The position numbers and the translations under genes are program-made. Shown here piece after piece: positions 968 to 59,033 of a DNA stretch of 64,000 nucleotides. The notes below the pieces were generated by a model that made no database searches, had not been told where the DNA came from, and saw only the letters and a list, made by a program, of their open reading frames with translations. This DNA comes from an uncultured Thermodesulfobacteriota bacterium (GTDB lineage: Bacteria > Desulfobacterota > Desulfarculia > G963662305), in the NCBI GenBank assembly GCA_964634465.1, contig CAZWLY010000004.1, forward strand, positions 160,683 to 224,682. The letters are read 5' to 3'. Numbering within the stretch: position 1 is the stretch's first letter; each line of letters begins with the position of its first letter.

Positions 968-997
968 TGGGCTCTCCTTATCTTTCCTGGAGGTCGG

Positions 998-1666: not shown

Positions 1667-1832
1667 AGGGCCTCCTCAAGCCCGGTCCCTCCAGGCGAAC
1701 CGGAAGGATACGCAGTATTGAAACTGTTGTGATTCTACGGAAATAAAGCGACAACACCATAGTTGTCTATCACATCGGCTTGAGGGGTGTCAATAACGGT
1801 TTATGTTCTTGAAAAACCGAGTTGTCATCAAT

Positions 1833-2701: not shown

Positions 2702-3544
2702 TCAAGGCCGGCTCTCTTCGTCGAGGAACGAATCGATCAGCTTCCGGGCGATGGACACCCCGCCGGGCAGTCTGGGCAGGTCGTCGCGGCCGAACCAGCC
2801 GGCCGAGACGATCTCCCGGCCGTCGATCTCGATCTCGCCGCCGGCCCAGACGGCGGAGAAGCCGATCATCAGCGAGTCGGGGAAGGGCCAGGGCTGGCTG
2901 CCGAAGTAGCGGACGTCGGTCACCTCCACCCCGACCTCCTCCTTGACCTCACGCACGACGGCCTCTTCCAGGGTCTCGCCCGGCTCGACGAAGCCGGCGA
3001 TGGTGGAGTGCATCCCCTCCGGAAAGTGGGGGGAACGGGCCAGCAGAATCCTGTCGTCGCGCCGGACCAGGACGATGACCGCCGGCGAGAGGCGGGGAAA
3101 CTTGACCAGACCGCAGGCCGGGCACTCCTTGGCCCGCTCGTCGGGCTTGACGGCCATCCTTTCGCCGCACCGGCCGCAAAAGACGTTCAAGCGGTCCCAG
3201 TCCAGAATCTGGACCGCCCGACCGGCCAGACAGAGGGCCTCCTCGTCGCCCCAAAGATACAGCCGCCTCAGATCGACGAAGACCATCCCCTCGGGCGGTT
3301 CGACCTCGCCGGGGTCGCCCAGGGCCTCGGCCACGTAGCACGGCGCGCCGTCCCAGAGGCCGATAAAGTGCTCGCGGGCGAGCTTAAGGCCGAGGCCGGC
3401 CGGGTCGTCCAGCCGGGGCAGCCGATGGCGGTTTTCGTCGTCGCCGCCGCCGATCAACAGCCTGCGGCCCGAGTAGACGAACCACCAGGCCGGTCCGTTC
3501 GCCTTGGCCGGCGGTTTCGAGCCGGGGATGAAGTCGCTGGTCAT
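2702..3544 (-). CDS. nudC: NAD+ diphosphatase NudC (Nudix hydrolase with zinc ribbon)
   Basis: AWWFVYSGRRLLI N-terminal motif, CGRCG...CPACG zinc ribbon, Nudix box GFVEPGETLEEAVVREVKEEVGV, and the SQPWPFP motif typical of NudC. Confidence 0.8.
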   Translation of the reverse strand: MTSDFIPGSKPPAKANGPAWWFVYSGRRLLIGGGDDENRHRLPRLDDPAGLGLKLAREHFIGLWDGAPCYVAEALGDPGEVEPPEGMVFVDLRRLYLWGDEEALCLAGRAVQILDWDRLNVFCGRCGERMAVKPDERAKECPACGLVKFPRLSPAVIVLVRRDDRILLARSPHFPEGMHSTIAGFVEPGETLEEAVVREVKEEVGVEVTDVRYFGSQPWPFPDSLMIGFSAVWAGGEIEIDGREIVSAGWFGRDDLPRLPGGVSIARKLIDSFLDEESRP

Positions 3545-3571
3545 GATCTGTTTCGCCTCTTCGCCCCGCCG

Positions 3572-3925
3572 TCACATCGGCCCGCCGCCGGTTTGCCGCC
3601 TGATGTACTCCAGGTCCCAGCGATAGGCTTCCCGCTCCGGCCTGAGCCAGAGCGCCTCGGCGTAGTCGTTTTCGGCCGAGCCCCAAAAGCCCTTGCGCTC
3701 ATAGGCCTGGCCCCGGGCGTTATAGGCCTTGGCCAGCTCGTCGCGGCCGAGTCGGCCCGAGTCGATGGCCTCGCTCAGCCGGGCCACGGCCCGATCCAAC
3801 TCGCCGGCGGCCAGCGCGGCCAACCCGTCCTGCATCGCCTCTCTGGCCGAGCCGGCCCAGGCCGGGCCGGCCAAGGCGACGACGACGATGAGGATGGCGG
3901 CCGCCGCGATCAGGCGTTTTTTCAT
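3572..3925 (-). CDS. TPR-repeat protein with signal peptide (probable periplasmic or lipoprotein)
   Basis: N-terminal MKKRLIAAAAILIVVVALAGPAWA signal-like segment followed by TPR-like helical repeats (AYNARGQAYERKGFWGSAENDYAEAL). 27 bp upstream of nudC on the same strand. Confidence 0.55.
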   Translation of the reverse strand: MKKRLIAAAAILIVVVALAGPAWAGSAREAMQDGLAALAAGELDRAVARLSEAIDSGRLGRDELAKAYNARGQAYERKGFWGSAENDYAEALWLRPEREAYRWDLEYIRRQTGGGPM

Positions 3926-3992
3926 CGACTCTCCCCCTTGGTCAGACGGGTGTTCCTGTTTGGTCCAGATTGTAGCCTCGGCCGGGCGGCGT

Positions 3993-5381
3993 TCAATCGA
4001 CCCGGGACGACTCGGCCCGGCGGGTGATCTCGGCCAACCGCTCGGCGTTCAGGTCGTAGCGCCACAAGACGGGCAGGCTGATCGCCAGAAGCGCCGCCGG
4101 GGCGATGGAGAAGGCGACGATGATTCCGGTCAGGGCGCTTTCCGGCTGGACGGCCGTCTGTCCGGCCACCGTCTCCACGAATCCGGAGGCGCCCAGGACG
4201 AGCCCCACCAACAGCGCGCCGCCGGCCATGCCGGTCTTCTCGCCGGCGGTCCAGACCCCGGTGAAGATACCCTCGCGCCTGAGCCCCGAGTTGGCGTAGT
4301 CGGCCTGGATGGCGTCGGGCAGCATGGAGAAGGGAAAGAGCTGGATGCCGGCGTAGGCCGAGCCCATGATCGCCGTCTGGATGTAGAGGAGCGTCATCCT
4401 CTCGGCGCTGGCGGTAAGCAGGCTCAAGTCCATGACGGCGAACAGGGCCGAGGTGATCAGGTAGGCGTTGAGCTTGCCCAGCCGCCTGGAGACCCAGACC
4501 CACCAGGGCATGGTCACGATGGCCGGGGCGACGAAACAGAGGAACATCGGCGTGACCATGGTGTCCGGGCCCTTGATGATGTACTTGACGAAGTAGGGCA
4601 GGCTGGCCAGGATCGAGCCGACCGCGATCTGCTGGGGAAAGAAACCGATCATCAGGATCAGAAACGGCTTGTTTCCCCAGGCGATGGCCATCTGCTCCTT
4701 GAACGGCAACGTCGTCTCGACCTTGGTCGTGAACGGCGCCTTGGCCGTGCCCCAGACGGCGATGAGCATGACGATCAGACACACCGCGGCCAGGCTGACC
4801 GACATGACGGCGTAACCATGGCGGCCGCCGCCGGCGGCGGCGATGACGGCCGGGGCCGCCCCGCCGGCGATAAGGATGCCGGCGGTCATGAAGGCCATCC
4901 GAAAGGACATGATCGCGGTCCGCTCGTCGTAATCCTGGGTCATCTCGGCCGGCATGGCCACGTAGGGCACCTGGAAGAGAGTGTAGGCCGTGGCGCAGAG
5001 GATGAAGGCGATCATCACCCACCAGAACTTGGGCATGGGCGAGGCGAAGTCGGGCACGGCGAAGAGCAGGGCCAGGAAGACGGGCAGGGTCAGCGACCCG
5101 GCCAGCAGGTAGGGCCGCCGTCGGCCCCAGCGGGTCTGGGTCTTGTCCGAGAGGGCGCCGACGATGGGATCGGTGACGACGTCCCATATCTTGGGGATGA
5201 AGACGGCCAGGGAGGCCAGGGAGGCGGCGACGCCCAGGGTGTCGGTCATGAAGTACATCAAGAGCAGGCCCGGCAGGGCGGCGAACATGCCGGTGCCCAT
5301 GGAGCCGACGCCGTAGCTGAGGTAGATCGATCGGGGCAGCCTGCCGCCGGGGGTGGTGGTCTCGGTGCCGGCCATGGCCAA
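3993..5381 (-). CDS. MFS transporter, glycoside-pentoside-hexuronide (GPH) cation symporter family
   Basis: 12-TM profile. DKTQTRWGRRRPYLL matches the GPH/MelB family signature after TM2. Confidence 0.75.
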   Translation of the reverse strand: MAMAGTETTTPGGRLPRSIYLSYGVGSMGTGMFAALPGLLLMYFMTDTLGVAASLASLAVFIPKIWDVVTDPIVGALSDKTQTRWGRRRPYLLAGSLTLPVFLALLFAVPDFASPMPKFWWVMIAFILCATAYTLFQVPYVAMPAEMTQDYDERTAIMSFRMAFMTAGILIAGGAAPAVIAAAGGGRHGYAVMSVSLAAVCLIVMLIAVWGTAKAPFTTKVETTLPFKEQMAIAWGNKPFLILMIGFFPQQIAVGSILASLPYFVKYIIKGPDTMVTPMFLCFVAPAIVTMPWWVWVSRRLGKLNAYLITSALFAVMDLSLLTASAERMTLLYIQTAIMGSAYAGIQLFPFSMLPDAIQADYANSGLRREGIFTGVWTAGEKTGMAGGALLVGLVLGASGFVETVAGQTAVQPESALTGIIVAFSIAPAALLAISLPVLWRYDLNAERLAEITRRAESSRVD

Positions 5382-5653
5382 TCCTCCCAGAAAGCCGAAT
5401 CGGTCGTGGTTGGAGGTGAAGTGCGATCGCAGACCCCTGGCCCGGCCGAACCGTGAACACCGGATCGCGGGGGCTTATCTGAAAAACAAAAGTATCACAC
5501 CGGCCTTCGACCGGGCAAGCCCGCTCGGCCGGCGGGACCGGCGCAGGCCGGTTGCCGGGGGACCGGCCGGGACCAAGCTTACGGCATGACGTGTGACAGA
5601 AATGGAACGCATCGGGGAAAGGGACTTCAAGGCAAGGAGACCGGACACTCGCT

Positions 5654-6691
5654 CTAGACGAAGACCTTGTATCCCCCGGCGAAGCGGGATTGGCGAAAGA
5701 AGAAGGTCAGCCGGATGGTGTCGCGGGTCACTCCGTCGCGGCCCTTGGCGATGATCAGGCGGTTGAAGGTCATCCCCACCCGCTCCATCAACGCCCTGGC
5801 CGCGGCCGGGTCGCCGCCTATCTCTTTGAGCGCCTCGGCTTCGGAGAGGGGCTGGAGGAGCATGACCATGTCCGGGGTGTAGATCGTCCGGGACGAGCCG
5901 ACGACGTCTTTTAGAGACGCGGCCCAGTCCTGGCCCGGCTCGGGCCGGCGGACCTCGGAGATGACCAGGACCGCGTCGCCGGTTCGGTCTCGAAGCGTCT
6001 TCATCGCCCCGACTCGCCAGGCGTCGGCCTCGGAGGCCTCCAGGGCGGCCAGGCTCTTGTCGCCATGCCAGGGCAGGGGAAAGGCCTGGAGATAATCGAC
6101 CAGGATGATCGACCGCCGGCACCCGGTTTGGGCCTTGAGGCGGGTCACCTGGTCGAGGATCCTTTCGACCGTCGGCTCGGGGAAGTTGGTCTCGTCCAGG
6201 ATCAGAATCCGCTCGCCCAGCCGCTCCAGCTCCAGCCGGGCCGTCTCCAGGGCCGCCCGCTCCTCGGCGGTGAGGGACGCCCCCTCCGCCTCCTCCCCGC
6301 CCGGGCGGGAGCCCAACACCAGCGTCCGCCAGTCCAGGTGGGCCCGGTTGCACAGCATTCGGGTGACGATCTCCTGGCTGGTCATCTCCAGGGACAAGAA
6401 CAGAAAGCAGGCGTCGGGATTGTGGGCCACCGCGTCCAGACCGAGTTGGACGGCCAGGGCGGTCTTGCCCACGTTGGGCGCGGCGGCCAAGAGCATCAAC
6501 CCCCGCAGCCCCAACGTGGCCCGATCCAGACCGGCGATGGTCTTCTGGGGCAGGCCGATGAACTGCCGGCCGCGCCAGCGTTCCAGGGCCTGGTCGTGGA
6601 GCGCGAGGCCCTCTCTCAGACTCAGCCCGAGCCGGCTCGGCTTGGGGTTGTCACGGTTGTCGGCGATCATCGATCGACTCCCTGGTCTCAC
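5654..6691 (-). CDS. DnaB-helicase C-terminal-domain (RecA-fold) ATPase lacking the DnaB N-terminal domain
   Basis: IGLPQKTIAGLDRATLGLRGLMLLAAAPNVGKTALAVQL (Walker A), SLEMTSQE, IILVDYLQAF (Walker B / H2), ISEVRR, NRLIIAKGRDGVTRDTIRLTFF. All DnaB-family motifs are present in a 345-aa protein. The start is either the GTG at 6691 (4-bp overlap with the upstream PilZ gene) or the ATG at 6670. Confidence 0.7.
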   Translation of the reverse strand: MRPGSRSMIADNRDNPKPSRLGLSLREGLALHDQALERWRGRQFIGLPQKTIAGLDRATLGLRGLMLLAAAPNVGKTALAVQLGLDAVAHNPDACFLFLSLEMTSQEIVTRMLCNRAHLDWRTLVLGSRPGGEEAEGASLTAEERAALETARLELERLGERILILDETNFPEPTVERILDQVTRLKAQTGCRRSIILVDYLQAFPLPWHGDKSLAALEASEADAWRVGAMKTLRDRTGDAVLVISEVRRPEPGQDWAASLKDVVGSSRTIYTPDMVMLLQPLSEAEALKEIGGDPAAARALMERVGMTFNRLIIAKGRDGVTRDTIRLTFFFRQSRFAGGYKVFV

Positions 6692-7104
6692 TCGTCATCG
6701 CCGCTTGGCTCACCCGCCTTCAGCCGGTCGCGCCAGTCGATGGGCTGGGTTGGGCCGATGAATTCGACGCCCAGCCTGAAGCGGCGGTCTTTGTCCGAGG
6801 GCGCGGTGTTGATCCACACCAGGCGCGCCTGCGCCCGCCAGGTTTCCGAGGCTCCGATCTCGACCTCGATCTCCAGGCGATGGACCTCCGGCTCGGCCAG
6901 GCAGCGGTGGAGGTGGAAGTCGCCCCGCTTCAGCTCGGCCACGGCCAGGCCGCAGCCGGCCTCGGTCAAGTCCACCAGTCGGGCCTCGAACGAGGGCGCG
7001 TCGCGCTCGTCTTCGCTCCAGCCCAACACTCTGAACCGCGCCGGCCGGTCGATGACGAGCCGCGAGTGTTTGCGCCGCTCTTTGAGGCTTTGCCACAGGC
7101 CCAT
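6688..7104 (-). CDS. PilZ-domain protein (putative c-di-GMP receptor)
   Basis: RKHSR (RxxxR) followed about 25 aa later by DLTEAGCG (DxSxxG-like), in a 138-aa protein; the classic PilZ motif pair. Its stop overlaps the start of the downstream ATPase gene. Confidence 0.6.
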   Translation of the reverse strand: MGLWQSLKERRKHSRLVIDRPARFRVLGWSEDERDAPSFEARLVDLTEAGCGLAVAELKRGDFHLHRCLAEPEVHRLEIEVEIGASETWRAQARLVWINTAPSDKDRRFRLGVEFIGPTQPIDWRDRLKAGEPSGDDE

Positions 7105-7291
7105 GGCGACGCCCTCCCGGCGACGATTTCTTTCAGAGTGATGATCCGGTTACGCCGCCATTATCAATCATAGATGGAAACGGCCCAAATGCCAAGGAAG
7201 GCCCCTCGGACCCAGCCGCCTGGCCGCCGATTGCGCCTTCAAACCGGTTCTGATATCCTGCCCGTCGAATCATCGACCAAGGGGGGCGGAC

Positions 7292-7861
7292 ATGGAACGG
7301 CGGGTGGCGGCGGCCGGATCGGGCTTCATCTTCGAGGAAGATCAGCTCGTCCGCAACAGCCCCTGGGGCTGGCTGGCCCTGGCCGGGGCGGGACTGATCG
7401 TCGCCGTCTTCGGCTACGCCCTGTACCAGCAGTTGGTCCTGGGGCGGCCCTGGGGGGATCGGCCCATGTCCGACGCGGCCCTGATCGCCCTCGCCCTGCC
7501 CATGTTCGCCCTGGCCGGGTTTCTGGCCGTGCTCGGCTTGGCCGGCCGGCTGACCGTCCGGGTGAGGCCGGCCGAACTCCAGATCCGCTACTTTCCCCTT
7601 GTCAACAAAACCATACCCTGGGCCGACATCGCCGCCTGCACCGCCCGGAGTTATCGTCCCCTGTTGGAGTACGGCGGTTGGGGCGTCCGCTGGGGCGGTC
7701 GAAAGAGGGGCTGGGCCTACAGCGTCTCGGGCAATCGGGGCGTCCAATTGGAGCTTGCGAGCGGCAAGCGGATTCTGATCGGCTCCAAGCGAGCCGAGGA
7801 GCTGGAGGCGGCGTTCATCGAGGCCGGCGGGCCGACTCCGCCGCCCTCGACGACCCGCTGA
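7292..7861 (+). CDS. Membrane protein with two N-terminal TM helices and a bacterial PH-like (YdbT/bPH_2-like) domain
   Basis: Hydrophobic helices WGWLALAGAGLIVAVFGYALY and LIALALPMFALAGFLAVLGLAG, then a beta-rich segment resembling membrane-flanked bacterial PH domains. No catalytic motif. Confidence 0.4.
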   Translation: MERRVAAAGSGFIFEEDQLVRNSPWGWLALAGAGLIVAVFGYALYQQLVLGRPWGDRPMSDAALIALALPMFALAGFLAVLGLAGRLTVRVRPAELQIRYFPLVNKTIPWADIAACTARSYRPLLEYGGWGVRWGGRKRGWAYSVSGNRGVQLELASGKRILIGSKRAEELEAAFIEAGGPTPPPSTTR

Positions 7862-7945
7862 CCCGCCTTCCCCTGCCTTCAAAACGCGGCTTGTTGTAGA
7901 ATTAGGCGGCGGGACCGTCAACCTGATTCGCCGATCGGAGTAGCC

Positions 7946-9682
7946 ATGCTCTGCTGTCACATCACCCACGAGGCCTCGCGCAAGTTCGGCGGCATCGGCG
8001 CCGTCCTGGCCGGGCTGATCGCATCCTCGGCCTACACCGAGGCATTCGACAAGACCCTTGTCTACGGGCCGCTGTTCGACCGAACAGGCCCGGTCGGCTC
8101 CCGGATCGAGGCCGGCGGCGAGGTGGTCTACTCCGGCCCGGACGGTTTCGACGACGGCGGCCTGGCCGACCTCTTTCGTCCCATTGAACGGCGCCACGGC
8201 GTCGGTCTGGTCTACGGCCGGCGGCTGATGGTCGATGAACTGGCGCCGGAACGCTCCCGTGAGGTGGACGTCGTCCTCATCGACGTGACGACCATGCCGG
8301 CCGAGAAGGCCGATCTTTTGAAGTACGGTCTGTGGGAGAACTTCGGCCTCGAGTCGGACCGCTACCCGGACTGGGACTACGAGCAGTACATTCGCCTGGC
8401 CGGCCCCTACCTGGACGTCGTCGAGGCCCTCTACCCCCAGGAGAGGGGCGCCGTCCACCTGGCCCACGAGTACATGGGCCTGCCCTCGGCCCTGACGGTC
8501 GTCTCGGCCCAGCGGGCCGGGCGGCGGACGGCGGACAAGACCTTCTTCTACGCCCACGAGGTCGCTCCGGCCCGGGCCATCGTCGAGAATCTGCCCGGCC
8601 ACGAGATCGCCTTCGACAACCTCCTCCGGCTGGGTCTGAAGGAGGGCCGGGTCTTGGAGGACGATTTCGGCTCCCAGGCCCACAACTATCGCTCCGAGCT
8701 GGTCAAACGGGCCGAGCATCTGACCGGCGTTCTGGCCGTCAGCGACAACATCCGGGACCAGTTGCTCTATTTTTACCCGGCCATCGGGGCCGATAGAATC
8801 CATGTCGTCTACAACGGCGTCGGCTTCGGGTCGATCGGCTTCGAGGACAAGATGAAAGACCGGGAGCTGATCAAGGATTACTGCGAGACGCTTTTCAACT
8901 ACCGGCCGGAGATCATCATCAGCCACGTCACCAGGCTGATCGTCAGCAAGGGTCTGTGGCGCGACGTCGCCTTCCTCTACCGCCTCGATGAACACCTGGC
9001 CCGGGCCGGGGTCAAGGGCTTCTACATCCTGGTCTCCAGCCTGATCGCCTCGGGCCGTCCCCACGACGAGATCAGGCGCATGGAGGCCGAGTACGGCTGG
9101 CCGGTCTTCCATCGCCGCGGCTGGCCGGACCTGGAGGGGGCCGAGGCGGACATCTACGAGTTTCTGACCCTGTTCAACGCCCGCTCCAGGGCGGTCAAGG
9201 GCGTCTTTCTCAACCAGTTCGGCTTCTCGAACGAGGCGGCCGGCAGCCGGGTGCCGGCCGGAGCCGACACCCTGACCCTGCGTTCGGCCAGCGACATGGA
9301 ACTGGGGCTGTCCACCTACGAGCCCTTTGGCATCGCCCAGTTGGAGACCTATCCCTTTGGCGGCGTGCCGGTCTTGAGCCGGGCCTGCGGCTGTTCGTTT
9401 CTTCTGGACGCCGCCGCGCCGAAGGATACCCACCTGGTAATCGATTTCGCCGCCCCGCCGGCCGAAATGGGGCTCGACGTCGATGACGCGAAGGCGCTCA
9501 AGAACATGTCGGCCGATACGCGCCGGCTTGTGGAGGAGGCGGTCATCGACCGCCGGGCGGCCGAAGCGTTCAAGCTCGTCTGGCCCGAACGGCGACGGGA
9601 GCTCTTCAATACCATGCGGGCCGCGGCCGCCGATCTGGGTTGGGAGGCCATCGGCCGGCGGGTGGTGGCGGCCATCGGCTGA
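7946..9682 (+). CDS. GT3-family (eukaryote-type) glycogen synthase-like glycosyltransferase
   Basis: N-terminal HITHEASRKFGGIGAVL resembles the FEVAWEVANKVGGIYTV motif of GT3 glycogen synthases. The C-terminal LSTYEPFGIAQLETYPFGGVPVLS aligns with the yeast Gsy2 segment [23 protein letters not shown]. 578 aa. Confidence 0.5.
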   Translation: MLCCHITHEASRKFGGIGAVLAGLIASSAYTEAFDKTLVYGPLFDRTGPVGSRIEAGGEVVYSGPDGFDDGGLADLFRPIERRHGVGLVYGRRLMVDELAPERSREVDVVLIDVTTMPAEKADLLKYGLWENFGLESDRYPDWDYEQYIRLAGPYLDVVEALYPQERGAVHLAHEYMGLPSALTVVSAQRAGRRTADKTFFYAHEVAPARAIVENLPGHEIAFDNLLRLGLKEGRVLEDDFGSQAHNYRSELVKRAEHLTGVLAVSDNIRDQLLYFYPAIGADRIHVVYNGVGFGSIGFEDKMKDRELIKDYCETLFNYRPEIIISHVTRLIVSKGLWRDVAFLYRLDEHLARAGVKGFYILVSSLIASGRPHDEIRRMEAEYGWPVFHRRGWPDLEGAEADIYEFLTLFNARSRAVKGVFLNQFGFSNEAAGSRVPAGADTLTLRSASDMELGLSTYEPFGIAQLETYPFGGVPVLSRACGCSFLLDAAAPKDTHLVIDFAAPPAEMGLDVDDAKALKNMSADTRRLVEEAVIDRRAAEAFKLVWPERRRELFNTMRAAAADLGWEAIGRRVVAAIG

Positions 9683-9728
9683 TCGGCCGCCGGGGCCGGC
9701 CCCGTCAGCCTGATCCAAACAACTTTTT

Positions 9729-10787
9729 TCAGGTCAAGACCCGGATCCGACCCTTGGGCTCGGCCTCCACCCGGCCGATGATCGACGCCTCGACCCCCCG
9801 GCCGGCCAGATCGGCCATCAGTCCCTCCGTCCGCTCCTCGGGTGCGGCCATCAGCAGGCCGCCCGAGGTCTGGGCGTCGGCCAGCACGCCGAGGATGAAT
9901 GGATCGACGCCTTCGGCGACGTCCACCGCCTTGGCGCAAAAGGCCTGGTTGGCGTGGCTGCCGGCCGGCGTCATCCCCATCCGGGCCAGGCCGAGAACCT
10001 CCTCCAGAATCGGCGTCCTGGCCGCCTCGATTATCAGGCCCACTCCCGAGGCCTGGGCCATCTCCAGGCCGTGGCCCAGGAGCCCGAAGCCGGTGATGTC
10101 GGTCGCCGCCCTGACCCCGGCCGCGATCATGGCCTCGGCCGCCCGGTCGTTGAGGTCGGCCATGACCTCGATCATCCGTCGCTCCAAATCGGGCGAGCCC
10201 AACCGGCCCTTGAGCGCCGTGGCCAGGATGCCCAGCCCCAGCGGCTTGGTCAGGATCAAGACTTGGCCGGGGCGGGCGGCGGCGTTGGTGACGACCCGGT
10301 CGGGGTGGACCAGGCCGGTGACCGACAGCCCGTACTTGATCTCGGGATCATCCACCGAATGCCCGCCGACCAAGAGCGCCCCGGCCTCCCGGATCTTGTC
10401 CAGACCGCCCTTGAGTATCTCCAGCAGGACGCCCTTGTCCATGTTCTTGGCCGGGAAGCAGACGATGTTCATCGCCGTCAGGGGCTTGCCGCCCATGGCG
10501 TAGACGTCGGACAGGGCGTTGGCGGCCGCGATCTGGCCGAAGGCGTAGGGGTCGTTGACGAGAGGGGTGAAGAAATCGACCGTCTGGATCAGGGCCGTGT
10601 CCTCGTTGAGTTTGATGACCCCGGCGTCGTCAGAGCTCTCCCGTCCGACCAGCAGACGGGGGTCGGCGTCGAGCGGCAGGCGGTCCAAAACTTCGGCCAG
10701 GTCCCCCGGCCCCAGTTTGGCCGCTCAACCGGCCGCGGTCACCGTCTCGGCCAGACGGGGAGGATCCTTGATTCGATCGGCGCTCAC
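9729..10787 (-). CDS. selD: Selenide,water dikinase SelD, a selenoprotein with in-frame UGA (Sec) at 10725..10727
   Basis: The track ORF 9729..10688 matches SelD (DFFTPLVNDPYAFGQIAAANALSDVYAMGGKP). Reading through the TGA at 10727..10725 (minus strand) continues in frame to a GTG at 10787 preceded by GGAG. This encodes VSADRIKDPPRLAETVTAAG-U-AAKLGPGDLAEVLDRLPLD, aligning to E. coli SelD ([24 protein letters not shown]) with Sec at the Cys17 position. Confidence 0.8.
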
Positions 10788-10872
10788 GTCTTCTCGCTCC
10801 TTACGTTCTCGGCTTCCAACAACTCGGCCAGTTTCCGCCCGCCGGGAGTCAGGCTCCGGCCGACGCGTTTGA

Positions 10873-11691
10873 TCAGGAAGAAGTCGCGTTGATGTTAAGC
10901 CCCTCCACCTCGAGCTGGACCAGGCGGCCCGAGCGGACGTCGTCGCCCACGGCCAGGCTGGAGAGGATCGACGCCCCCAGTCCGGCCAGGATGGCCTGGC
11001 GGACGGCCTGGGTCGAACCCAGCTCGGCGACGACGTTGAGGTCGGCCAGCGACACGCCCAGCCTGTCCAAAGCCTGGGCGGTCACCATCCGGGTCCCGGA
11101 GCCGGCCTCGCGCAACAGAAAAGGCAGGTCGGTCAAACCGGCCGGCTTCAGTCTCGGCCCGCCGGCCGGCTTCAGATCGGGCGGGGCGACCAGGATCAGC
11201 TCGTCCTGGCAGCAGGCGGCGTACTTCAGTTTGGGGTCGTCCAGCCTGGCCCCGATGACGCCCATCTCCAGCTCGCCGGCGGCGACCTTGAGGGCGATGG
11301 AGCGGGTGTCGGCCACGGTCAGCCGGACGATCAGCTCGGGATAGAGGGAGCGCATCTGGGCCAGGTAGGCCGGCAGAAGGTAGTGGCCGGGGATGGTCGA
11401 GCCGCCCACGGACAGCTCGCCCTTGACCTGCTCCGAGGCCTCGGCCACCGCCTCCAAGGCCTCGTCGCGCAGGGCGATGAGCTTCAAGGCGTACTCGTGG
11501 AGGACCTCAGCCTGACGGGTGGGGGCCACGCCCCGCCCCAGCCGGTCGAAGAGCCGGACGCCGAGTTCGTCCTCCAGGGCCTTGATGTGGCCGCTGACCG
11601 TCGGCTGGGACAGGTAGACCGCCTCGGCCGCCCGAGACAGCGAGCCCATCTCGTAGACTTTGGCGAAGACCTGGAGGCGATGAAGGTCCAT
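10873..11691 (-). CDS. LysR-family transcriptional regulator
   Basis: N-terminal HTH LHRLQVFAKVYEMGSLSRAAEAVYLSQPTVSGHIKALEDELGVRLFDR and LysR substrate-binding domain topology. Contains an in-frame 24-bp tandem duplication at 11138..11185. Confidence 0.85.
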   Translation of the reverse strand: MDLHRLQVFAKVYEMGSLSRAAEAVYLSQPTVSGHIKALEDELGVRLFDRLGRGVAPTRQAEVLHEYALKLIALRDEALEAVAEASEQVKGELSVGGSTIPGHYLLPAYLAQMRSLYPELIVRLTVADTRSIALKVAAGELEMGVIGARLDDPKLKYAACCQDELILVAPPDLKPAGGPRLKPAGLTDLPFLLREAGSGTRMVTAQALDRLGVSLADLNVVAELGSTQAVRQAILAGLGASILSSLAVGDDVRSGRLVQLEVEGLNINATSS

Positions 11692-11975
11692 TTAGACGTC
11701 ACCTATCTGGTTCATAGATGAAACCTATTATAAAGGACGGGTCGGGGAAGGCAAGGCAAGATAGAGACCGGAACCTTGTTGCGGCCTCCGGTGTGGTTTT
11801 TTGTTTACTTTTGGCTTGACAACCGGCTACCCGAGGAGTAGTTGCTACGCTTCTTCGAGCGGTCGTTTTGGTTCTCGGCCGGCCTTCCCAGGGCTAAAAC
11901 GATGGGTGTTTCACCTTTGTCGGACCCCATTCTTGGGATAGAATCTCTCAAGGGTTCCAATCGGGAGATCGGGCT

Positions 11976-14009
11976 ATGGGCGGCGTCTTTCTGCGGGCGG
12001 CCTACCACCACGAGTGGCTTCTGACCAACGGCCGGGGCGGCTACGCCCTGGGCTTCGGCAACTTCTTGAACGAGCGCAAGTACAATGGCTTGCTCGTCGC
12101 CGGGCTCGACGGCTTCAAGCGGGTCCACGTCCTGGCCTCGCTGGAGGAGGCGGTCGAGTGGCGTGGAGCCAGGTTCCACCTCGACGCCAACCACTACCCG
12201 GACACCATCCATCCCCAGGGTTACCGCCACATCGTCAAGTCCTGGCCCCGGCCCTACCCGAGCGCGCTCTACTCGGCCGACCCGGTCAATCCCGATTTTC
12301 TGATCCTCAAGGAGCTGTTCATGATCGCCGGGGTGAACGCGGTCGTGGTCAAGTACACTAACCTGGGCGCGTTCCCGATCAACTTCACCATCCGGCCCAA
12401 GCTGACCCTGCGCGACCACCACACCGTGAGCCGGCCCGGCCGCTGGGAGGCCGAGGAGGTGGAGATCGAGTTCCACGGCGACTCGTTCTCGGTCTACAAG
12501 CCGGGGCTCGAAGACGAGGTCTGGGGCTATACCGAGTCCGGCGGCATGGCCGATAACCGGATCGTTTTCAGAAACGTCTTCTACCCCCTGGAGGCGGCCC
12601 GGGGCTACGAGGCCGTGGAGGACCTGCTCTCCCCGGCCGACATCCACTTCCGCCTTACGCCGGGGGCCAGCAACCGGTTGGTCTTCTCCCTGGGGCGGCT
12701 CGAGGAGGCCGTGGTCCGGGCCGAGGCGGCCGAGGCCGACTACCGGCGCCTGCCCCTGCCGGCCGACCATCCGGAGCGACTGAAGGGCCAGCCCGACTGG
12801 CTGTCGCTGATCAGGTTCAACGAGCCGGTCTTTTCCCACGGTGAGTACCGCCGGATCCTGGAGGGAGCCGCGGCCGACTTCTTGACCGAGGGCGACTGCC
12901 TGGCCGGCTACCCCTGGTTCGGGCCGTGGGGCCGGGACAGCCTGATCGCGCTCTCCGGCATTCGGTTGTTGAAAGGCGGCCGCCGGCTGGCGGTGCGCAT
13001 CCTCAAGAAATACGGCCGGGCGATAAGAAACGGCCTCTTGCCCAACACCTTCGGCGAGGGCGGCCAGGGGCTCAACTATCTGTCGGTGGACGCTCCGCTG
13101 TGGTTCGTGCTGCGCTCGTTCGAGATCGCGCCCCGGGACAAGGAGCTTTTCGCCAGGGCGGGTAAGATCGTGCTCAACTACCTGTTCAACCAGGACCTGC
13201 CCTTCTTCGCCGCCGAGGACGGCTTGATCGAGCTGCGCGAAGGGCCCTGGGCGCTGACCTGGATGGACGCCAAAGTCTATGACGAGCCGGTCACGCCGCG
13301 CTTCGGCAAGCCGGTCGAGATCAACGCCCTGTGGTTCAACGCTCTCAACGGCCTCCTCAAGATGGCCGAGGCCCAGGGCTTGAAGGGCGGCGCCAGACTG
13401 GCCGCCCGACCCTACTCGATCTCCTGCCGGGACCTTGAGGACCTGGCCGGGCACGTCAAGCGCGGTCTGGCCGGTTTCGTCGGCGACGATTACCGCGACG
13501 ATTACCTGGCCGATCGGATCGACGCCTCCGGGCCGGTCTTTGAGATCCGGCCCAACGCCGTCATCGCCGCCGGCCTGCCCTTCGAGCCCTGGGCCAGAGA
13601 CGTCCAGGCCATGGTTCTGGAGACGGCCCGGCGCGAGCTTCTGACACCCTTCGGCCTCAGAAGCCTGAACGTCGGTCACCCGGCCTTCAAGAACAAGTAC
13701 CTCGGCGGTCAAAAACAGCGCGACCTGGCCTACCACCAGGGCACGGTGTGGGCCTGGCCTCTGGCCTACCTGGCCCGGCTGCACTTGAGGGTCCACGGCG
13801 ACAAACCGAAGCGGAAGCTGATCAAGGATCTCAGCGCTCTCATCTGGCGCTTCAGGGACGGCTTTCTCAAGGACCAGATCGCCTCGGTGGCCGAGATCTG
13901 GGACGGCCTGGAGCCGACCATTCCCAAGGGCTGTCCGGCCCAGGCTTGGTCGGTGATGGCCGTCCTGGAGATCGAGCACCTGATCGACGGACTGGAGGGC
14001 GGGCGGTGA
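11976..14009 (+). CDS. Amylo-alpha-1,6-glucosidase / glycogen debranching enzyme (GDE C-terminal, GH133-like)
   Basis: N-terminal GDE_N-like region plus TFGEGGQGLNYLSVDAPLWFV and DAKVYDEPVTPRFGKPVEINALWFNAL, characteristic of archaeal/bacterial amylo-1,6-glucosidases. Confidence 0.75.
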   Translation: MGGVFLRAAYHHEWLLTNGRGGYALGFGNFLNERKYNGLLVAGLDGFKRVHVLASLEEAVEWRGARFHLDANHYPDTIHPQGYRHIVKSWPRPYPSALYSADPVNPDFLILKELFMIAGVNAVVVKYTNLGAFPINFTIRPKLTLRDHHTVSRPGRWEAEEVEIEFHGDSFSVYKPGLEDEVWGYTESGGMADNRIVFRNVFYPLEAARGYEAVEDLLSPADIHFRLTPGASNRLVFSLGRLEEAVVRAEAAEADYRRLPLPADHPERLKGQPDWLSLIRFNEPVFSHGEYRRILEGAAADFLTEGDCLAGYPWFGPWGRDSLIALSGIRLLKGGRRLAVRILKKYGRAIRNGLLPNTFGEGGQGLNYLSVDAPLWFVLRSFEIAPRDKELFARAGKIVLNYLFNQDLPFFAAEDGLIELREGPWALTWMDAKVYDEPVTPRFGKPVEINALWFNALNGLLKMAEAQGLKGGARLAARPYSISCRDLEDLAGHVKRGLAGFVGDDYRDDYLADRIDASGPVFEIRPNAVIAAGLPFEPWARDVQAMVLETARRELLTPFGLRSLNVGHPAFKNKYLGGQKQRDLAYHQGTVWAWPLAYLARLHLRVHGDKPKRKLIKDLSALIWRFRDGFLKDQIASVAEIWDGLEPTIPKGCPAQAWSVMAVLEIEHLIDGLEGGR

Positions 14010-15322
14010 GAGTCCTCTTTCTGACCTGGGAGTTTCCCCCGCTGATCTCCGGCGGGCTGGGAACGGCCTGCTACGGCATGGTCCGCTCTTTGCTGGGCCG
14101 GGGGGTCGAGATCGACCTGGTCCTGCCGGCGAGGGAGGAGGTCTACTTCAAGCTCCGCTCGCCCCGGGACGCCGACGAGCTGCCGGTCTCTTTTCTGAGC
14201 GCCTCGGCGGCGGCCAAAGAGGTCGAGCGGACCGCCGAGCTGATCGAGCGGCTGGAACTGGTCGGCGTCAGCGCCATCCCCGAGACCTACCTCTCCCCGG
14301 CGGCCAGTCACCAGGCCCTGTGGACCGAGTTGGCCCGAACGTCCTCGGCCGGCCGAGCCAAGGTCTTCGCCCGGATCGAGAGACAGCTTTTGGGCGGCGA
14401 GAGGCTGTTCAGAAAGGTCCAGGAGATGGCCGACCGGGTCCAGCTCGTCGCCGACAGGCTCGACTTCGACCTCATTCACGCCCACGACTGGCTGACCTAC
14501 CCGGCCGGGCTGGCCCTGGCCGAGCTGTCCGGGAAGCCGCTGGTCGCCCACATCCACGCCACCGAGTTCGACCGGGCCGGCGGCGTCGGCGACGAGCGCA
14601 TCCACCAGATCGAGTACGCCGGCCTGTCCGCCGCCGACACGGTCATCGCCGTGTCGCGCTACACCGCCGAGATGGTCATCAACCGCTACCGGATCTGGCC
14701 GGCCAAGATGCGGGTCGTCCACAACGCCTTCGACCTGCCTCCGGTGAGGCTGGCGGACAAACGCCGGATCTTCAAACACCCGCTGGTCCTCTACCTGGGC
14801 CGGATCACCGTCCAGAAGGGGCCGGACTACTTCCTGGAGGTGGCCCGCCGGGTCCTGAAGCGCCACCCCAAGACCCAGTTCGTCATGGCCGGCGCCGGCG
14901 ACATGATGCGCTCGATCCTTCACCGCTCGGCCTCGATGCGCTTGAGGCAGCGCTTTCTCTTCACCGACTTTCTGAACCGCCGCCAGGTGGAAGAGATCTT
15001 GAAAGCGGCCGACATCTTCATCATGCCCTCGGTCTCCGAGCCCTTCGGCATCGTCCCCCTGGAAGCCATGGCCCACGGCGCGGCGGCCATCATCTCCAAA
15101 CAGTCGGGCGTGGCCGAGGTTTTGACCAACGTCCACAAGGTCGATTTCTGGGACGTGGACCAGATGGTCGATCTGGTCTGCCGGCTCATCGAGGACCCGG
15201 AGGAGAGGCTGGCCCTGGCCCGGGCCGGCCAGGAGGAGGTGTCGCGCATCCAGTGGGACGAGGCGGCCGAGAAGATCGAGGCGGTCTACGCCGAAACCCT
15301 CGAGACGGCCGGGCGGAGGTAG
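14006..15322 (+). CDS. Archaeal-type (GT4/GT5-like) glycogen or alpha-glucan synthase
   Basis: Start GTG at 14006 overlaps the stop of the upstream gene (GTGA). VRVLFLTWEFPPLISGGLGTACYGMVRSLLGRGVEIDLVLP resembles the N-terminus of Pyrococcus-type glycogen synthases. C-terminal GT-B E...FG...E motif: IMPSVSEPFGIVPLEAMAHG. Confidence 0.65.
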   Translation: MRVLFLTWEFPPLISGGLGTACYGMVRSLLGRGVEIDLVLPAREEVYFKLRSPRDADELPVSFLSASAAAKEVERTAELIERLELVGVSAIPETYLSPAASHQALWTELARTSSAGRAKVFARIERQLLGGERLFRKVQEMADRVQLVADRLDFDLIHAHDWLTYPAGLALAELSGKPLVAHIHATEFDRAGGVGDERIHQIEYAGLSAADTVIAVSRYTAEMVINRYRIWPAKMRVVHNAFDLPPVRLADKRRIFKHPLVLYLGRITVQKGPDYFLEVARRVLKRHPKTQFVMAGAGDMMRSILHRSASMRLRQRFLFTDFLNRRQVEEILKAADIFIMPSVSEPFGIVPLEAMAHGAAAIISKQSGVAEVLTNVHKVDFWDVDQMVDLVCRLIEDPEERLALARAGQEEVSRIQWDEAAEKIEAVYAETLETAGRR

Positions 15323-15325
15323 GCG

Positions 15326-16519
15326 GTGCTCAACATCGTCTTCTACTTCCAGGTCCACCAGCCCTATCGACTGCGGCCCTACAGCGTCCTCGACATCGGC
15401 CGGGACCACGACTACTTCGACGAGCGCCTCAACCGGATGGTGGCCGAAAAGGTCGGCCACAGGTGCTATCTGCCGACCAACCGCCTCTTCCTGGAGCTGA
15501 TCGAGCGCTTCGAGGGGAGATTCAAGATCGCCTTTTCGATTACCGGCACCGCCGTGGAGCAGTTCAAACGCTACACGCCCGAGGTGCTCGATTCGTTCAA
15601 GGCCCTGGCCGCCACCGGCTGCGTCGAGTTCCTGGGCGAGACCTATTACCACTCTTTGGCCTTTCTCTTCGACGAGGAGGAATTCCTGGCCCAGGTCAGG
15701 CTGCACAAGGAGTTGATGCAGCGGGAGTTCGGCTTCACGCCGATCGTCTTTCGAAACACCGAGTTGATCTACCAGGACGAGCTGGGCGAGCTGGTGGCCG
15801 ACCTGGCCGGCTTCAAGGTCGTCCTGGCCGAAGGGGCCGACCGGGTGCTCGATTGGCGTTCGCCGCTGTACGCCTACCAGAACTACTCCCGGCGGCTGTT
15901 TTTGCTCTTGAAGTACTACACCCTCTCCGACGACATCGCCTTCCGCTTCTCGGATCGCTCCTGGGCCGAGTGGCCGCTGAGCGTAACCAAGTTCGTCGAT
16001 TGGGTGGCCCGGCTCGGCCTCAATGAGCACCGCGGCCGGAACCTTTTTTTGAACCTGTTCATGGACTACGAGACCTTCGGCGAGCACCAGTGGGCCGAGA
16101 CGGGCATCTTCGAGTTTCTTCGCCGGCTGCCCGGGGAGGTTCTGAAGCAGCCCCACCTCGGCTTCGCCTGGCCCTCGGACGTCCTCGACCTGACCGACTA
16201 CCCGACCGAGGCGCTGTCCGTGCCCCAGCCGGTCTCCTGGGCCGACACCGAGCGCGACCTTTCGGCCTGGATGGAGAACGATCTGCAGCTCAACGCCCTG
16301 GAATCGTTCTATATCCTCCTGGAGACGATCAAAGAGCAGGGCCGGAACGATCTTCTGGAAGAGGCTCGGCGGCTGTCCACCTCGGATCATTTCTATTACA
16401 TGTCGACCAAGTACTTCCAGGACGGCGACGTCCACAAGTACTTCTCGCCCTACGGCGCGCCCGAGGAGGCCTATCTTTATTACATGAACGCCCTGGCCGA
16501 TTTAGAGGAGAGGCTGTAG
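15326..16519 (+). CDS. Glycoside hydrolase family 57 protein (alpha-amylase / 4-alpha-glucanotransferase type)
   Basis: VFYFQVHQPYRL, the hallmark N-terminal GH57 motif, with overall GH57 catalytic-domain composition. Confidence 0.8.
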   Translation: MLNIVFYFQVHQPYRLRPYSVLDIGRDHDYFDERLNRMVAEKVGHRCYLPTNRLFLELIERFEGRFKIAFSITGTAVEQFKRYTPEVLDSFKALAATGCVEFLGETYYHSLAFLFDEEEFLAQVRLHKELMQREFGFTPIVFRNTELIYQDELGELVADLAGFKVVLAEGADRVLDWRSPLYAYQNYSRRLFLLLKYYTLSDDIAFRFSDRSWAEWPLSVTKFVDWVARLGLNEHRGRNLFLNLFMDYETFGEHQWAETGIFEFLRRLPGEVLKQPHLGFAWPSDVLDLTDYPTEALSVPQPVSWADTERDLSAWMENDLQLNALESFYILLETIKEQGRNDLLEEARRLSTSDHFYYMSTKYFQDGDVHKYFSPYGAPEEAYLYYMNALADLEERL

Positions 16520-16726
16520 GATGTACTCTTCCCCGCCACGACCTCGATTCCGGCTCGGCCCGTCGGTCGGGTTTGAGCCTTCTTCACGGCCGCGGCCGAT
16601 ATTCCGGGCGAGGCGCTGCGCCCGCTTGGCGGGCCTCGGCGATCTTGGCCGACCCGTTCCGGTCCGGCCAAGCCGCCGGGTGGGGATTACATGAACGCCC
16701 TGGCCGATCTGGAGGAGAGGCTGTAA
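16480..16726 (+). repeat. 40-bp direct repeat of the GH57 gene 3' end (16480..16519 and 16687..16726), separated by a 167-bp GC-rich spacer
   Basis: ttacatgaacgccctggccgatTTAgaggagaggctgtaG versus ttacatgaacgccctggccgatCTGgaggagaggctgtaA. Both encode YMNALADLEERL* and all three differences are synonymous. The second copy is not attached to any long ORF. Confidence 0.8.
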
Positions 16727-16785
16727 CTTGGGGGTATAATGGGACTGTCCGGAACCGAGCCTGACAGTGTAATCAGGGAGAAACG

Positions 16786-19338
16786 ATGAACCTGCGCCGC
16801 TTCTACGTCAAGCCTCACATGCCCGGCCGGCTCAAGCCGCTGTTCGAGCTGGCCTACAACGTCTGGACTACTTGGGACCAGGAGGCGATCAGGCTCTTTT
16901 CGCGCATCGACCCGGCCTTGTTTCGAAAGGTCCACCACAACCCGGTCGAGTTCATCCATCGTCTGGGCAGCGAGCGCCTGGCCGAGCTGGCCAAGGACCC
17001 CGGCTTCCTGTTCGAGCTGGAGCAGGTCTGGTACAAGTTCATCACCTACCTCTCCTTTGAGGGGACCTACTTGAGCGAGGCCGGCGAGGAGAAGTCCTTC
17101 GGCGAGGGCGACATCATCGCCTATCTGTCCATGGAGTTCTCCCTCCACGAGTCGATCCCCATCTATTCCGGCGGCCTGGGAATCTTGGCCGGCGACTACC
17201 TGAAGGCCGCCTCCGACGTCGGCCTGCCCCTGGTCGGCTTCGGATTGTTGTACCGCTTCGGTTACTTCACCCAGCGCATCAACCTCCACGGCCTCCAGGA
17301 AGAGGAGTACAAGGAGAACGTCTGGCACCTGAAACCGGTCGAGGAGGTGCTCGACCCGGAGGGCCAGCCGATCGTCTTCGGCGTCCCCCTCAAGGATGTC
17401 GAGGCGGCGGTCAAGCTGTGGAAGATCAACGTCGGGCGGACCACGCTCTATCTTCTGGACACCAACCTGGAGGACAATCCGCCCCAGGTCCGGGCGATCA
17501 CCGACATGCTCTACGATCCCGACCGGGACGACCGGATCGAGCAGGAATTGATCCTGGGCCGGGGCGCCCGGGTGGCCATGCGCCGGCTGGGCATCGAGCC
17601 CAAGGTCTACCACTTGAACGAAGGCCACTCGGCGTTCATCATCCTGGAGCGTTTGAAGGAATTGATGCTGGGCGAGGGCCGGTCTTTCGAGGAGGCGGCC
17701 AACATCATCCGCAACTCGACCGTCTTCACCACCCACACCCCGGTGATCGAGGGCAACGAGCATTTCGACGAGGAGTTGATCCTCGATTACGCCGCCGCCG
17801 ATCTCAAGAAACTGGGGCTGTCGGCCGACCGGTTCCTGGACCTGGGTCGGGTCTCGGGCCGGGGCAAGAGCTTTTGGCTGCCGGCCCTGGCCATTCGCTT
17901 CTCCCGCTTTACCAACGGCGTCTCGCCGATCCACGCTCAGGTGAGCCGCGGTATGTGGCGGCCGCTGTTCGCCGAGTTGCACGAGCTGGAGATACCGATC
18001 CACTCGATCAACAACGGCGTCCACCTGCCGACCTGGATGAGCAAGGACATCGCCTTCCTGTTCGACCGTTACGTCGGGCCGGACTATCTCCACAAGGCCG
18101 AGAAGCCCGAAGTCTGGGAGAAGGTCGCCGCCATCCCGGACGCCGAGTTGTGGGAGGCCCATCTTCGGGCCAAGCGGGACCTGATCTCCTTCGTTCGCCG
18201 CCGCCTGATGGCCGAGATGGAGCGCAAGGGCTTTGCCGAGTCCAAGCTTCGTGAGATCGAGGACGTGCTTTCGCCCCACGCCCTGACCATCGGCTTCGCC
18301 CGCCGCTTCGCTCCCTACAAGCGGGCCAACCTCATTCTTTCCAATCCGGAGCGGCTCAAGGCCATCCTGACCCATCCCCAGCGACCGGTCCAGATCATCT
18401 TCTCGGGCAAGTCCCACCCGGCCGACCTGGAAGGCAAGAGGATCATCCAGCAGGTGTTGCGCTTCATCCGGGACCACGAGCTGGAGACCAGGGTCGTCTT
18501 TGTCGAAGACTACGACATGGACGTCGCCCGGCACCTGGTCACCGGGGTGGACGTCTGGCTCAACACGCCCCTCAAACCCCTGGAGGCCAGCGGCACCTCG
18601 GGCATGAAGGCCGGCATCAACGGCGTGCTGAACTTGAGCGTCATGGACGGCTGGTGGCCGGAGTGCTACAACGGCGAGAACGGCTGGGCCATCACCGCCG
18701 GTGAGGCCATCGAGAACCTGGAGGCCAAGGCCGCGGCCGAGGCCAACCAGATATACGAACTCCTGGAGGAAGAGATCGCCCCGATGTTCTTCGAGCGCTC
18801 CGAGGGCGACATCCCCCGGGACTGGGCCCAGTGGATGAAGAACGCCATCGAGACCGTCGGCCGGGGCTTCAACATCCACGCCATGCTCAGGGGTTACCTC
18901 TACTCCTTTTACCTCCCCGAGACCGAGACCAGCGCCCGGCTGGCGGCCGACAAGGGCAAGGGGCTCAAGGCCCTGACCAAGCTCAAGAAAGACATCGATC
19001 GCTACTGGTCCAAGATCTATATCCGGGACTACTTCACCTCCATCGACGACCACGTTCCGGCGGTGGAAGAGGAGGTGACGGTCGATTGCTACGTCCAGGT
19101 GGACGACGCTCCGGTCGAACTCGTTATGGCCGAGGTGGTCTACACCTACGGCGAAGACGGCGGCCGCCTGGAGCGTATTCCCCTGAGTTTCCAGGAGTCT
19201 TACCCGGACAAGGTGGCCAAGTTCAGCGGTTCGTTCAGGCTCAAGGAGCCGGGCCTCCAGGAGATGGGGGTCAGGGTCCGGCCGGCCGACCCGCTCTTTT
19301 CGGAGCTCAACCCCAATTACGTCATCTGGGCCGGATAG
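16786..19338 (+). CDS. glgP: Alpha-glucan phosphorylase (GT35, maltodextrin/glycogen phosphorylase)
   Basis: 850 aa with an N-terminus typical of the alpha-glucan phosphorylase family (MNLRRFYVKPHMPGRLKPLFELAYNVWTTWDQEAIRLF). The long ORF 16687..19053 on the minus strand is its antisense artifact. Confidence 0.85.
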   Translation: MNLRRFYVKPHMPGRLKPLFELAYNVWTTWDQEAIRLFSRIDPALFRKVHHNPVEFIHRLGSERLAELAKDPGFLFELEQVWYKFITYLSFEGTYLSEAGEEKSFGEGDIIAYLSMEFSLHESIPIYSGGLGILAGDYLKAASDVGLPLVGFGLLYRFGYFTQRINLHGLQEEEYKENVWHLKPVEEVLDPEGQPIVFGVPLKDVEAAVKLWKINVGRTTLYLLDTNLEDNPPQVRAITDMLYDPDRDDRIEQELILGRGARVAMRRLGIEPKVYHLNEGHSAFIILERLKELMLGEGRSFEEAANIIRNSTVFTTHTPVIEGNEHFDEELILDYAAADLKKLGLSADRFLDLGRVSGRGKSFWLPALAIRFSRFTNGVSPIHAQVSRGMWRPLFAELHELEIPIHSINNGVHLPTWMSKDIAFLFDRYVGPDYLHKAEKPEVWEKVAAIPDAELWEAHLRAKRDLISFVRRRLMAEMERKGFAESKLREIEDVLSPHALTIGFARRFAPYKRANLILSNPERLKAILTHPQRPVQIIFSGKSHPADLEGKRIIQQVLRFIRDHELETRVVFVEDYDMDVARHLVTGVDVWLNTPLKPLEASGTSGMKAGINGVLNLSVMDGWWPECYNGENGWAITAGEAIENLEAKAAAEANQIYELLEEEIAPMFFERSEGDIPRDWAQWMKNAIETVGRGFNIHAMLRGYLYSFYLPETETSARLAADKGKGLKALTKLKKDIDRYWSKIYIRDYFTSIDDHVPAVEEEVTVDCYVQVDDAPVELVMAEVVYTYGEDGGRLERIPLSFQESYPDKVAKFSGSFRLKEPGLQEMGVRVRPADPLFSELNPNYVIWAG

Positions 19339-27163: not shown

Positions 27164-27266
27164 TCTCGACTCATTCTATCGCCCTTTGCGCCCGGCGGAC
27201 AAATCGGGCCACAACCGGCTTGTCTCCCGGCCGGAAAAATGAAAGAATAGGCGAGGGGGAGATTGT

Positions 27267-38470: not shown

Positions 38471-38607
38471 CGACTCATGAATGTTCGGAGCATGTCTACC
38501 AGATCGGACCGGGGGAAGTCCAGCGCTATGATCCGGCCGGGTCCGGGGCTTGGAGAGATGTTTTGAATGTGTTATCTTTAAGCCCCTGGTTCGGTTCCGG
38601 AGGGGGC

Positions 38608-58957: not shown

Positions 58958-59033
58958 GGCGGCGTAGCCAAGTGGCTAAGGCAGCGGCCTGCAAAGCCGT
59001 TATTCACCGGTTCGAATCCGGTCGCCGCCTCCA
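58958..59033 (+). tRNA. tRNA-Cys (anticodon GCA), with encoded CCA
   Basis: GGCGGCG TA GCC AAGTGGCTAA GGC A GCGGC CUGCAAA GCCGU ... ACCGG TTCGAAT CCGGT CGCCGCC T CCA. 7-bp acceptor stem, T-loop TTCGAAT, anticodon loop CU-GCA-AA. Confidence 0.85.

Follow-up and report, generated by a model that had tools for sequence, protein, structure and literature searches.

Known Sec-type SelD enzymes and their neighbours

The activity of E. coli SelD needs Cys17 and Lys20. In some bacteria the enzyme carries selenocysteine (Sec): Haemophilus influenzae SelD is a Sec enzyme, and A. aeolicus SelD (structures 2yye and 2zod) has Sec by nature as well, its structure having been solved with Cys in place of Sec. 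In a bacterial SECIS such as that of E. coli fdhF, the stem lies about 11–13 nt past the UGA and the loop, which begins with a G, about 21 nt past it.

A survey of prokaryotic SelD genes found that 19% of them encode Sec, always at the same position, and that the rest encode Cys (Mariotti et al. 2015, PMC4561486). Genes of the Sec type have the bacterial SECIS inside the coding sequence, and selenoprotein genes are usually misannotated (PMC4561486). A subfamily of LysR-type regulators, LysR_Se, adjoins Sec-pathway genes and has been proposed to act as a selenophosphate sensor (Lin et al. 2015, PMC5322559).

Here we analysed a selD gene in a 64-kb stretch of DNA, referred to below as the window. 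Comparison with related genes makes it very probable that this selD is a selenoprotein gene in which UGA encodes Sec, and that it was previously called short at the Sec codon.

The selD frame continues upstream through a single TGA

A six-frame call reads selD on the minus strand from TTG 10688 to 9729, giving a product of 319 aa. Upstream of this TTG the frame is broken only once, by a TGA, and past the TGA it stays open to a GTG and beyond. The GTG is preceded by a Shine-Dalgarno-like AGGAG with a spacer of 9 nt, and the GGAG within this element begins 13 nt upstream of the GTG. An earlier reading of this DNA, made from its letters and open reading frames (the sequence-only reading), had placed the called start at TTG 10688 and had traced the open frame via a single TGA to GTG 10787 with GGAG 13 nt upstream, and all of these coordinates proved right. 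The features of the extended gene are as follows.

9729..10787, minus strand: full-length selD coding sequence, 352 aa plus stop, with predicted Sec at residue 21 (translation, TIGR00476, NF002098)
10785..10787, minus strand: proposed GTG start of selD, with a Shine-Dalgarno sequence; it sets the predicted Sec at residue 21
10797..10801, minus strand: Shine-Dalgarno-like AGGAG, 9 nt upstream of the selD GTG, read off the sequence
10725..10727, minus strand: in-frame TGA, the predicted Sec codon (residue 21), aligned to E. coli Cys17 and backed by the codon pattern in relatives

The peptide gained by the extension is MSADRIKDPPRLAETVTAAG-U-AAKLGPGDLAEVL, and the extended product of 352 aa would begin MSADRIKDPPRLAETVTAAG-U-AAKLGPGDLAEVLDRLPL…. 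Upstream of the TGA the frame is open for as many as 118 codons. Because the DNA is 64.6% G+C, however, the open frame alone says little and is a weak argument for the extension; in our judgement the weight lies on the homology of the added residues. Besides GTG 10787, only one other in-frame start precedes the TGA, a GTG 5 codons before it that lacks a Shine-Dalgarno sequence. The best-placed start candidate of most relatives is usually an ATG preceded by a Shine-Dalgarno sequence and would set Sec at approximately residue 14–20, compared with residue 21 here.

The extension would restore the catalytic loop of SelD

With Cys put in for the UGA, the 352-aa product scored 376.1 bits against TIGR00476 (the SelD equivalog, cutoff 125 bits) over model positions 1–309 of 311, and 326.4 bits against NF002098 (cutoff 299 bits) over model positions 4–344 of 347. 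The TIGR00476 match begins at model position 1, which corresponds to SelD residue 11. The AIRS and AIRS_C (PurM-like) pair, PF00586 and PF02769, is on record for the identical protein P0001. The best matches among solved structures were E. coli SelD (3u0o, E = 1e-69) and A. aeolicus SelD (2yye/2zod, E = 6e-69).

In the HMMER alignment with 3u0o, residue 21, encoded by the UGA, falls on Cys17 and K24 falls on Lys20, so that the loop AAG-U21-AA-K24 lies opposite GAG-C17-G-C-K20. In A. aeolicus SelD (2yye), the UGA residue faces the cysteine of ...SSGCAAKVGPGDL..., and the local motifs, AAG-U-AAKLGPGDLAEVL here and SSG-C-AAKVGPGDLQEIL there, are almost the same. The catalytic loop is present only when the UGA is read through, and there are no start codons between the TGA and the loop Lys codon. 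Two further proposals of the sequence-only reading were thereby borne out: that the extension fits the SelD N-terminus with Sec at the Cys17 site, which is seen in the TIGR00476 match from position 1 and in the alignment with 3u0o, and that no start after the TGA keeps a catalytic Cys.

The same alignments bear on whether the TGA could be a true stop, which would make selD either a pseudogene or a gene for a 319-aa SelD that starts at TTG 10688 without the N-terminal loop. Automatic gene callers do read selD in this way, as in P0001, and Sec machinery was not seen in the 64-kb window. However, a product made after the TGA would have neither the Cys/Sec nor the Lys of the G-[C/U]-x-x-K loop, the 20 codons upstream of the TGA are conserved at the protein level with variation at third positions, and the remaining gene is intact and highly conserved (376 bits), which argues against a pseudogene. 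The TGA also recurs in 47 related loci among the matches listed. A true stop is thus very improbable.

Relatives carry TGA or a Cys codon at the same site

We fetched 80 related genomic loci from the matches listed, and in 62 of these the homologous codon could be found. Compared with Sec- and Cys-type SelD, as the sequence-only reading had proposed, the extended N-terminus falls into a family that uses both: among these loci from the matches listed, the codon at the Sec site is TGA in 47 of 62 and TGC or TGT in 15 of 62. The best-matching relatives among the matches listed are uncultured deltaproteobacteria, Desulfarculaceae and Syntrophobacterales with 57–63% identity, and TGA is present in every one of them whose site could be located.

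The nearest proteins in a collection of 5.8 billion sequences are mostly 297–329 aa long and have their N-terminus just past the Sec position, which is the usual sign of Sec genes miscalled by gene callers. A few full-length homologues with Cys were also found, including P0008 (GCAAKIGPGDL) and P0048 (GCGAKIGPGDL). In alignment A2, the Ala-Ala-Gly codons before the TGA vary across relatives chiefly at the third position, and these three codons are thus under protein-level selection. In four related loci (L023, L036, L041 and L050), a tRNA-SeC gene lies less than 6 kb from a TGA-type selD.

In P0094, a SelD homologue of 399 aa, the Sec/Cys position is occupied by W (GWAAKIGPEVL), perhaps because a TGA was translated with a different genetic code. 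The same protein contains an internal tandem duplication of 47 residues (LLVGGHTVDDKEPKYGLSV...).

A hairpin follows the UGA in TGA-type genes

Directly after the UGA, the transcript of selD is predicted to fold into a stem-loop that resembles a bacterial SECIS.

10695..10711, minus strand: putative bacterial SECIS core hairpin, 7-bp stem GGCCGGG/CCUGGCC with the loop GGA at 10704..10702, 13 nt past the UGA
10680..10724, minus strand: extended stem-loop (lower stem plus core), the 45 nt after the UGA, MFE −27.1 kcal/mol

The energy of the core hairpin is −11.4 kcal/mol. The lower stem of the putative SECIS is weaker, begins 6 nt past the UGA and is specific to the window sequence. The sequence-only reading had predicted a SECIS hairpin about 11 nt past the UGA; a hairpin is indeed present, but its core lies at 13 nt.

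Because the Gly-Pro-Gly-Asp-Leu codons impose part of the stem, we chose synonymous recoding as the null and generated 2000 recodings with the window's own codon usage. Only 0.45% of them fold as well as the 45-nt structure, which thus beats 99.5% of the recodings, and the 19-nt stretch holding the core hairpin is stabler than 96.4% of them. When the whole 71-nt fold was compared with dinucleotide shuffles, the result was marginal (z = −1.9); synonymous recoding is the more fitting null.

The helix was then scored in the related genes. In the 47 TGA-type sequences it is 70% paired, and the pairing or covariation was matched by none of 500 shuffles; in the 15 Cys-type genes it is 49% paired, no different from shuffles (271/500). 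For the window and 16 close relatives the helix is 82% paired, and both partners differ in three of the outer pairs (11 cells). This set had a covariation score of 0.257, compared with 0.152 in shuffles (reached by 0/500), and slid registers gave at most 0.077. RNAalifold, applied to the window and 16 of the closest TGA relatives, returned a 4-bp invariant core with 0 compensatory changes. The covariation comes from the outer stem pairs only, because the core CCNGG/CCUGG is partly forced by the codons of the Gly-Pro-Gly-Asp-Leu stretch.

The two groups of genes were also separated by a rule-based scan for hairpins with a perfect stem of at least 5 bp and a loop of 3–10 nt. The median of the best hairpin was −9.1 kcal/mol for TGA genes versus −2.6 kcal/mol for Cys genes (Mann-Whitney P = 1.3e-5), and hairpins of −7.5 kcal/mol or lower were found in 29/47 TGA genes versus 1/15 Cys genes. 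The hairpin is kept even where the peptide is altered, as in L057 (SPKVL), L070 (SPSIL) and L080 (GPTAL). A permissive Rfam scan of 10600..10800 gave only mir-648 and H19 at chance level and no match to a SECIS family. Taken as a whole, the folding and comparative results point to a putative bSECIS that is conserved and specific to TGA-type selD.

Within the first 60 nt past the UGA, the hairpins of TGA-type selD genes (L002–L080) show two placements. The window and its deltaproteobacterial relatives have the first, with a loop that is mostly GGA or GGU about 18–22 nt past the UGA. The second has a GUN loop 34 nt past the UGA and occurs in L020, L032, L033, L034, L043, L058 and L078, relatives that are labelled Clostridia/Bacillota, Dorea, Limnochordales and Dehalococcoidia.

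If the TGA were a sequencing or assembly error for TGC or TGT, selD would be an ordinary Cys-type gene. Relatives of this type exist (15/62 of the loci among the matches listed, and the proteins P0008 and P0048), and a possible 1-nt error lies about 160 nt away in the neighbouring LysR gene. Against this, a hairpin specific to TGA genes is present and would not be expected to persist in a Cys-type gene, and the closest relatives in which the site was located, among the matches listed, all have TGA. In addition, window positions 2880..16081 (13.2 kb) recur without a difference in an independent Logan assembly of run SRR15988953, which speaks against an error peculiar to one assembly, although the two assemblies probably share reads. 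We consider such an error at the TGA highly implausible.

UGA as a stop and as a probable Sec codon in the window

A UGA read as something other than Sec would require either its reassignment to Trp or Gly throughout the genome or read-through by a near-cognate tRNA. Pipelines have produced readings of this kind, as the W at the Sec/Cys site of P0094 shows. Reassignment is excluded, however, by the window itself, in which TGA ends 24 of the 42 Pfam-supported genes and is the commonest stop codon. Moreover, homologues switch between TGA and Cys codons only, and Trp or Gly in place of the catalytic nucleophile would be expected to inactivate the enzyme. There is thus only a very slight chance that the selD UGA is decoded without Sec.

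We favour the Sec reading because four independent lines of evidence coincide: the homology of the extension, the pattern of Sec and Cys codons in relatives, the hairpin specific to TGA genes, and the use of TGA as a normal stop. Under this reading, translation would begin at GTG 10787, and the hairpin just past the UGA (10727..10725) would recruit SelB carrying Sec-tRNA(Sec). Sec would then go in at residue 21, the catalytic position of the N-terminal glycine-rich loop G-[U/C]-x-x-K, and translation would run on to the stop at 9729 to give a 352-aa selenide, water dikinase. We infer that the decoding of the selD UGA depends on SelB.

Searches with ARAGORN and Rfam found no tRNA-Sec in the 64-kb window, and an Rfam scan of the whole window at the gathering threshold gave only a tRNA-Cys (58958..59033). 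Pfam scans of approximately 50 window ORFs showed no SelA, SelB, YbbB, YedE or YedF. The selA, selB and selC genes presumably lie elsewhere in the genome, as the sequence-only reading reasonably supposed; its suggestion of formate dehydrogenase or Hdr selenoproteins is speculative.

The window was screened for other Sec genes by looking for high-GC3 segments in the same frame that are split by one TGA, a screen that is blind near gene ends. It yielded only pairs of adjacent genes and no further selenoprotein gene in the window. Two candidates were rejected as Sec codons. The TGA at 3572..3574 (minus strand) separates a TPR protein gene from the adjacent gene that comes after it, for a NudC-type NADH pyrophosphatase, and that at 46767..46769 (plus strand) separates an acyl-CoA dehydrogenase gene from the gene that comes next, for an XRE-cupin regulator. 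A DUF6141 ORF and the 578-aa ORF (TGA at 7859..7861) are likewise separate genes.

A LysR_Se-type regulator gene lies upstream of selD

As the sequence-only reading had noted, a co-oriented lysR gene lies directly upstream of selD. Two points went unmentioned in that reading: the gene belongs to the selenium-associated subfamily, and its reading frame is not intact in the assembly.

10873..11691, minus strand: LysR_Se-type regulator, ORF as assembled, 272 aa with HTH_1 and LysR_substrate domains (NF040786)
10784..10888, minus strand: displaced C-terminal 34 codons of LysR_Se, in another frame; the TGA at 10786..10784 overlaps the selD GTG

The ORF as assembled scored 257.4 bits against NF040786 ('selenium metabolism-associated LysR'), whose cutoff is 250. 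It ends with ...GLNINATSS* at 10873, at model position 269 of 298, and the conserved LysR_Se C-terminus (RDFFLIKRVGRSLTPGG...) runs on in another frame to the TGA at 10786..10784. The displaced last 34 codons read RDFFLIKRVGRSLTPGGRKLAELLEAENVRSEKT. When the two frames were joined, the score rose to 273.7 bits over model positions 1–295 of 298. The loci L004, L007 and L013 also have a LysR_Se gene upstream of selD, and in all three the C-terminal segment is in a single frame. One base appears to be missing around 10886..10891, causing the frameshift, and an assembly error is the more likely explanation of it than a real mutation.

Once the frame is corrected, the stop of lysR and the start of selD share the sequence GTGA, an overlap that gives independent backing to GTG 10787 as the start of selD. 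A similar overlap is seen in L007, where the lysR stop overlaps the selD ATG as ATGAGTAA. Because the genes overlap in the frame-corrected reading, the arrangement suggests that lysR_Se and selD may form one transcription unit for a regulator and an enzyme. A stronger proposal would be that the two genes are translationally coupled via the stop/start overlap and that the regulator is genuinely truncated by the frameshift here. If so, the coupling would tie the synthesis of Sec-dependent SelD to a presumed selenophosphate-sensing regulator, and the truncation would change selenium regulation; we regard this combination as unlikely.

Other genes of the window

Beside the lysR-selD pair, positions 11976..19338 (plus strand) contain a cluster that resembles glycogen/alpha-glucan metabolism. 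Its genes encode a debranching-enzyme-like protein, for which locus L001 has GDE_N/GDE_C recorded, together with a GT4/GT5 glycosyltransferase, a GH57 enzyme and a DUF3417-type glucan phosphorylase. The 578-aa ORF at 7946..9682, across selD from this cluster, has only a weak GT4 match.

At the left edge of the window, a region cut by the window end (1..1675, minus strand) encodes a 4Fe-4S dicluster protein beside a weak NarI-like membrane subunit. This pair resembles a redox module of the DsrMK/Hme type, as would fit a sulfate-reducer-like (Desulfobacterota) origin.

Several ORFs of the window have no Pfam match. The 566-aa ORF at 49510..51210 (minus strand) is strongly coding-like (GC3 0.90); GC3 is 0.82–0.83 in the ORFs at 26486..27175 (minus strand) and 27243..27896 (plus strand). 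The ORF at 48253..49275 (minus strand) has a GC3 of 0.60 and may be no real gene. Another ORF, at 38464..39207 (plus strand), has a HisKA domain without HATPase_c and overlaps the 5' end of a class-III aminotransferase gene on the opposite strand (37115..38665); this ORF could be either a miscalled frame or a remnant.

Comparison with known systems

Sec-type SelD and the LysR_Se neighbour have both been described already, and the selD reported here is a routine addition to a known selenoprotein family; for the same reason it touches no open question. Its main value is for annotation: the public protein P0001 (319 aa) is cut at the Sec codon and without the catalytic loop, as are the majority of its closest relatives. 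From its nearest relatives the source appears to be a Desulfobacterota-like ("deltaproteobacterial") MAG, and selD makes it a probable user of selenocysteine, which justifies searching the genome for further selenoproteins that gene callers overlooked.

The regulator gene upstream of selD resembles LysR_Se/HrsM (PMC5322559) in that it scores above the NF040786 cutoff and adjoins a Sec-pathway gene, and differs in that, as assembled, a 1-nt frameshift puts its last 34 codons out of frame.

The product of selD aligns with E. coli SelD (3u0o) from end to end with E = 1e-69, and the E. coli Cys17/Lys20 pair corresponds to U21/K24. The nucleophile here would be Sec, whereas it is Cys in E. coli, and E. 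coli Cys19 is replaced by Ala. With Sec as the nucleophile, the translation of selD would depend on the product of its own pathway.

The hairpin after the UGA is similar to the fdhF SECIS in that it lies within the ORF, 13 nt past the UGA, and has an apical loop that starts with G, about 21 nt past the UGA. The two differ in the loop, which is the 3-nt GGA here and of the GGUC type in fdhF, and no bulged U is evident here.

The closest likeness is to the bacterial Sec-SelD enzymes. The selD of the window shares with them membership in the TIGR00476 family, a UGA in the G-U-x-x-K loop and a predicted stem-loop that lies within the coding sequence, just past the UGA. Its identity to genome representatives is approximately 63% at best among the matches listed, its N-terminus is a few residues longer, with the predicted Sec at residue 21, and it starts with GTG. 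No functional difference from these enzymes is evident, and the motif around the nucleophile is near-identical in A. aeolicus SelD and in the selD described here (…G-U/C-AAK[LV]GPGDL…).
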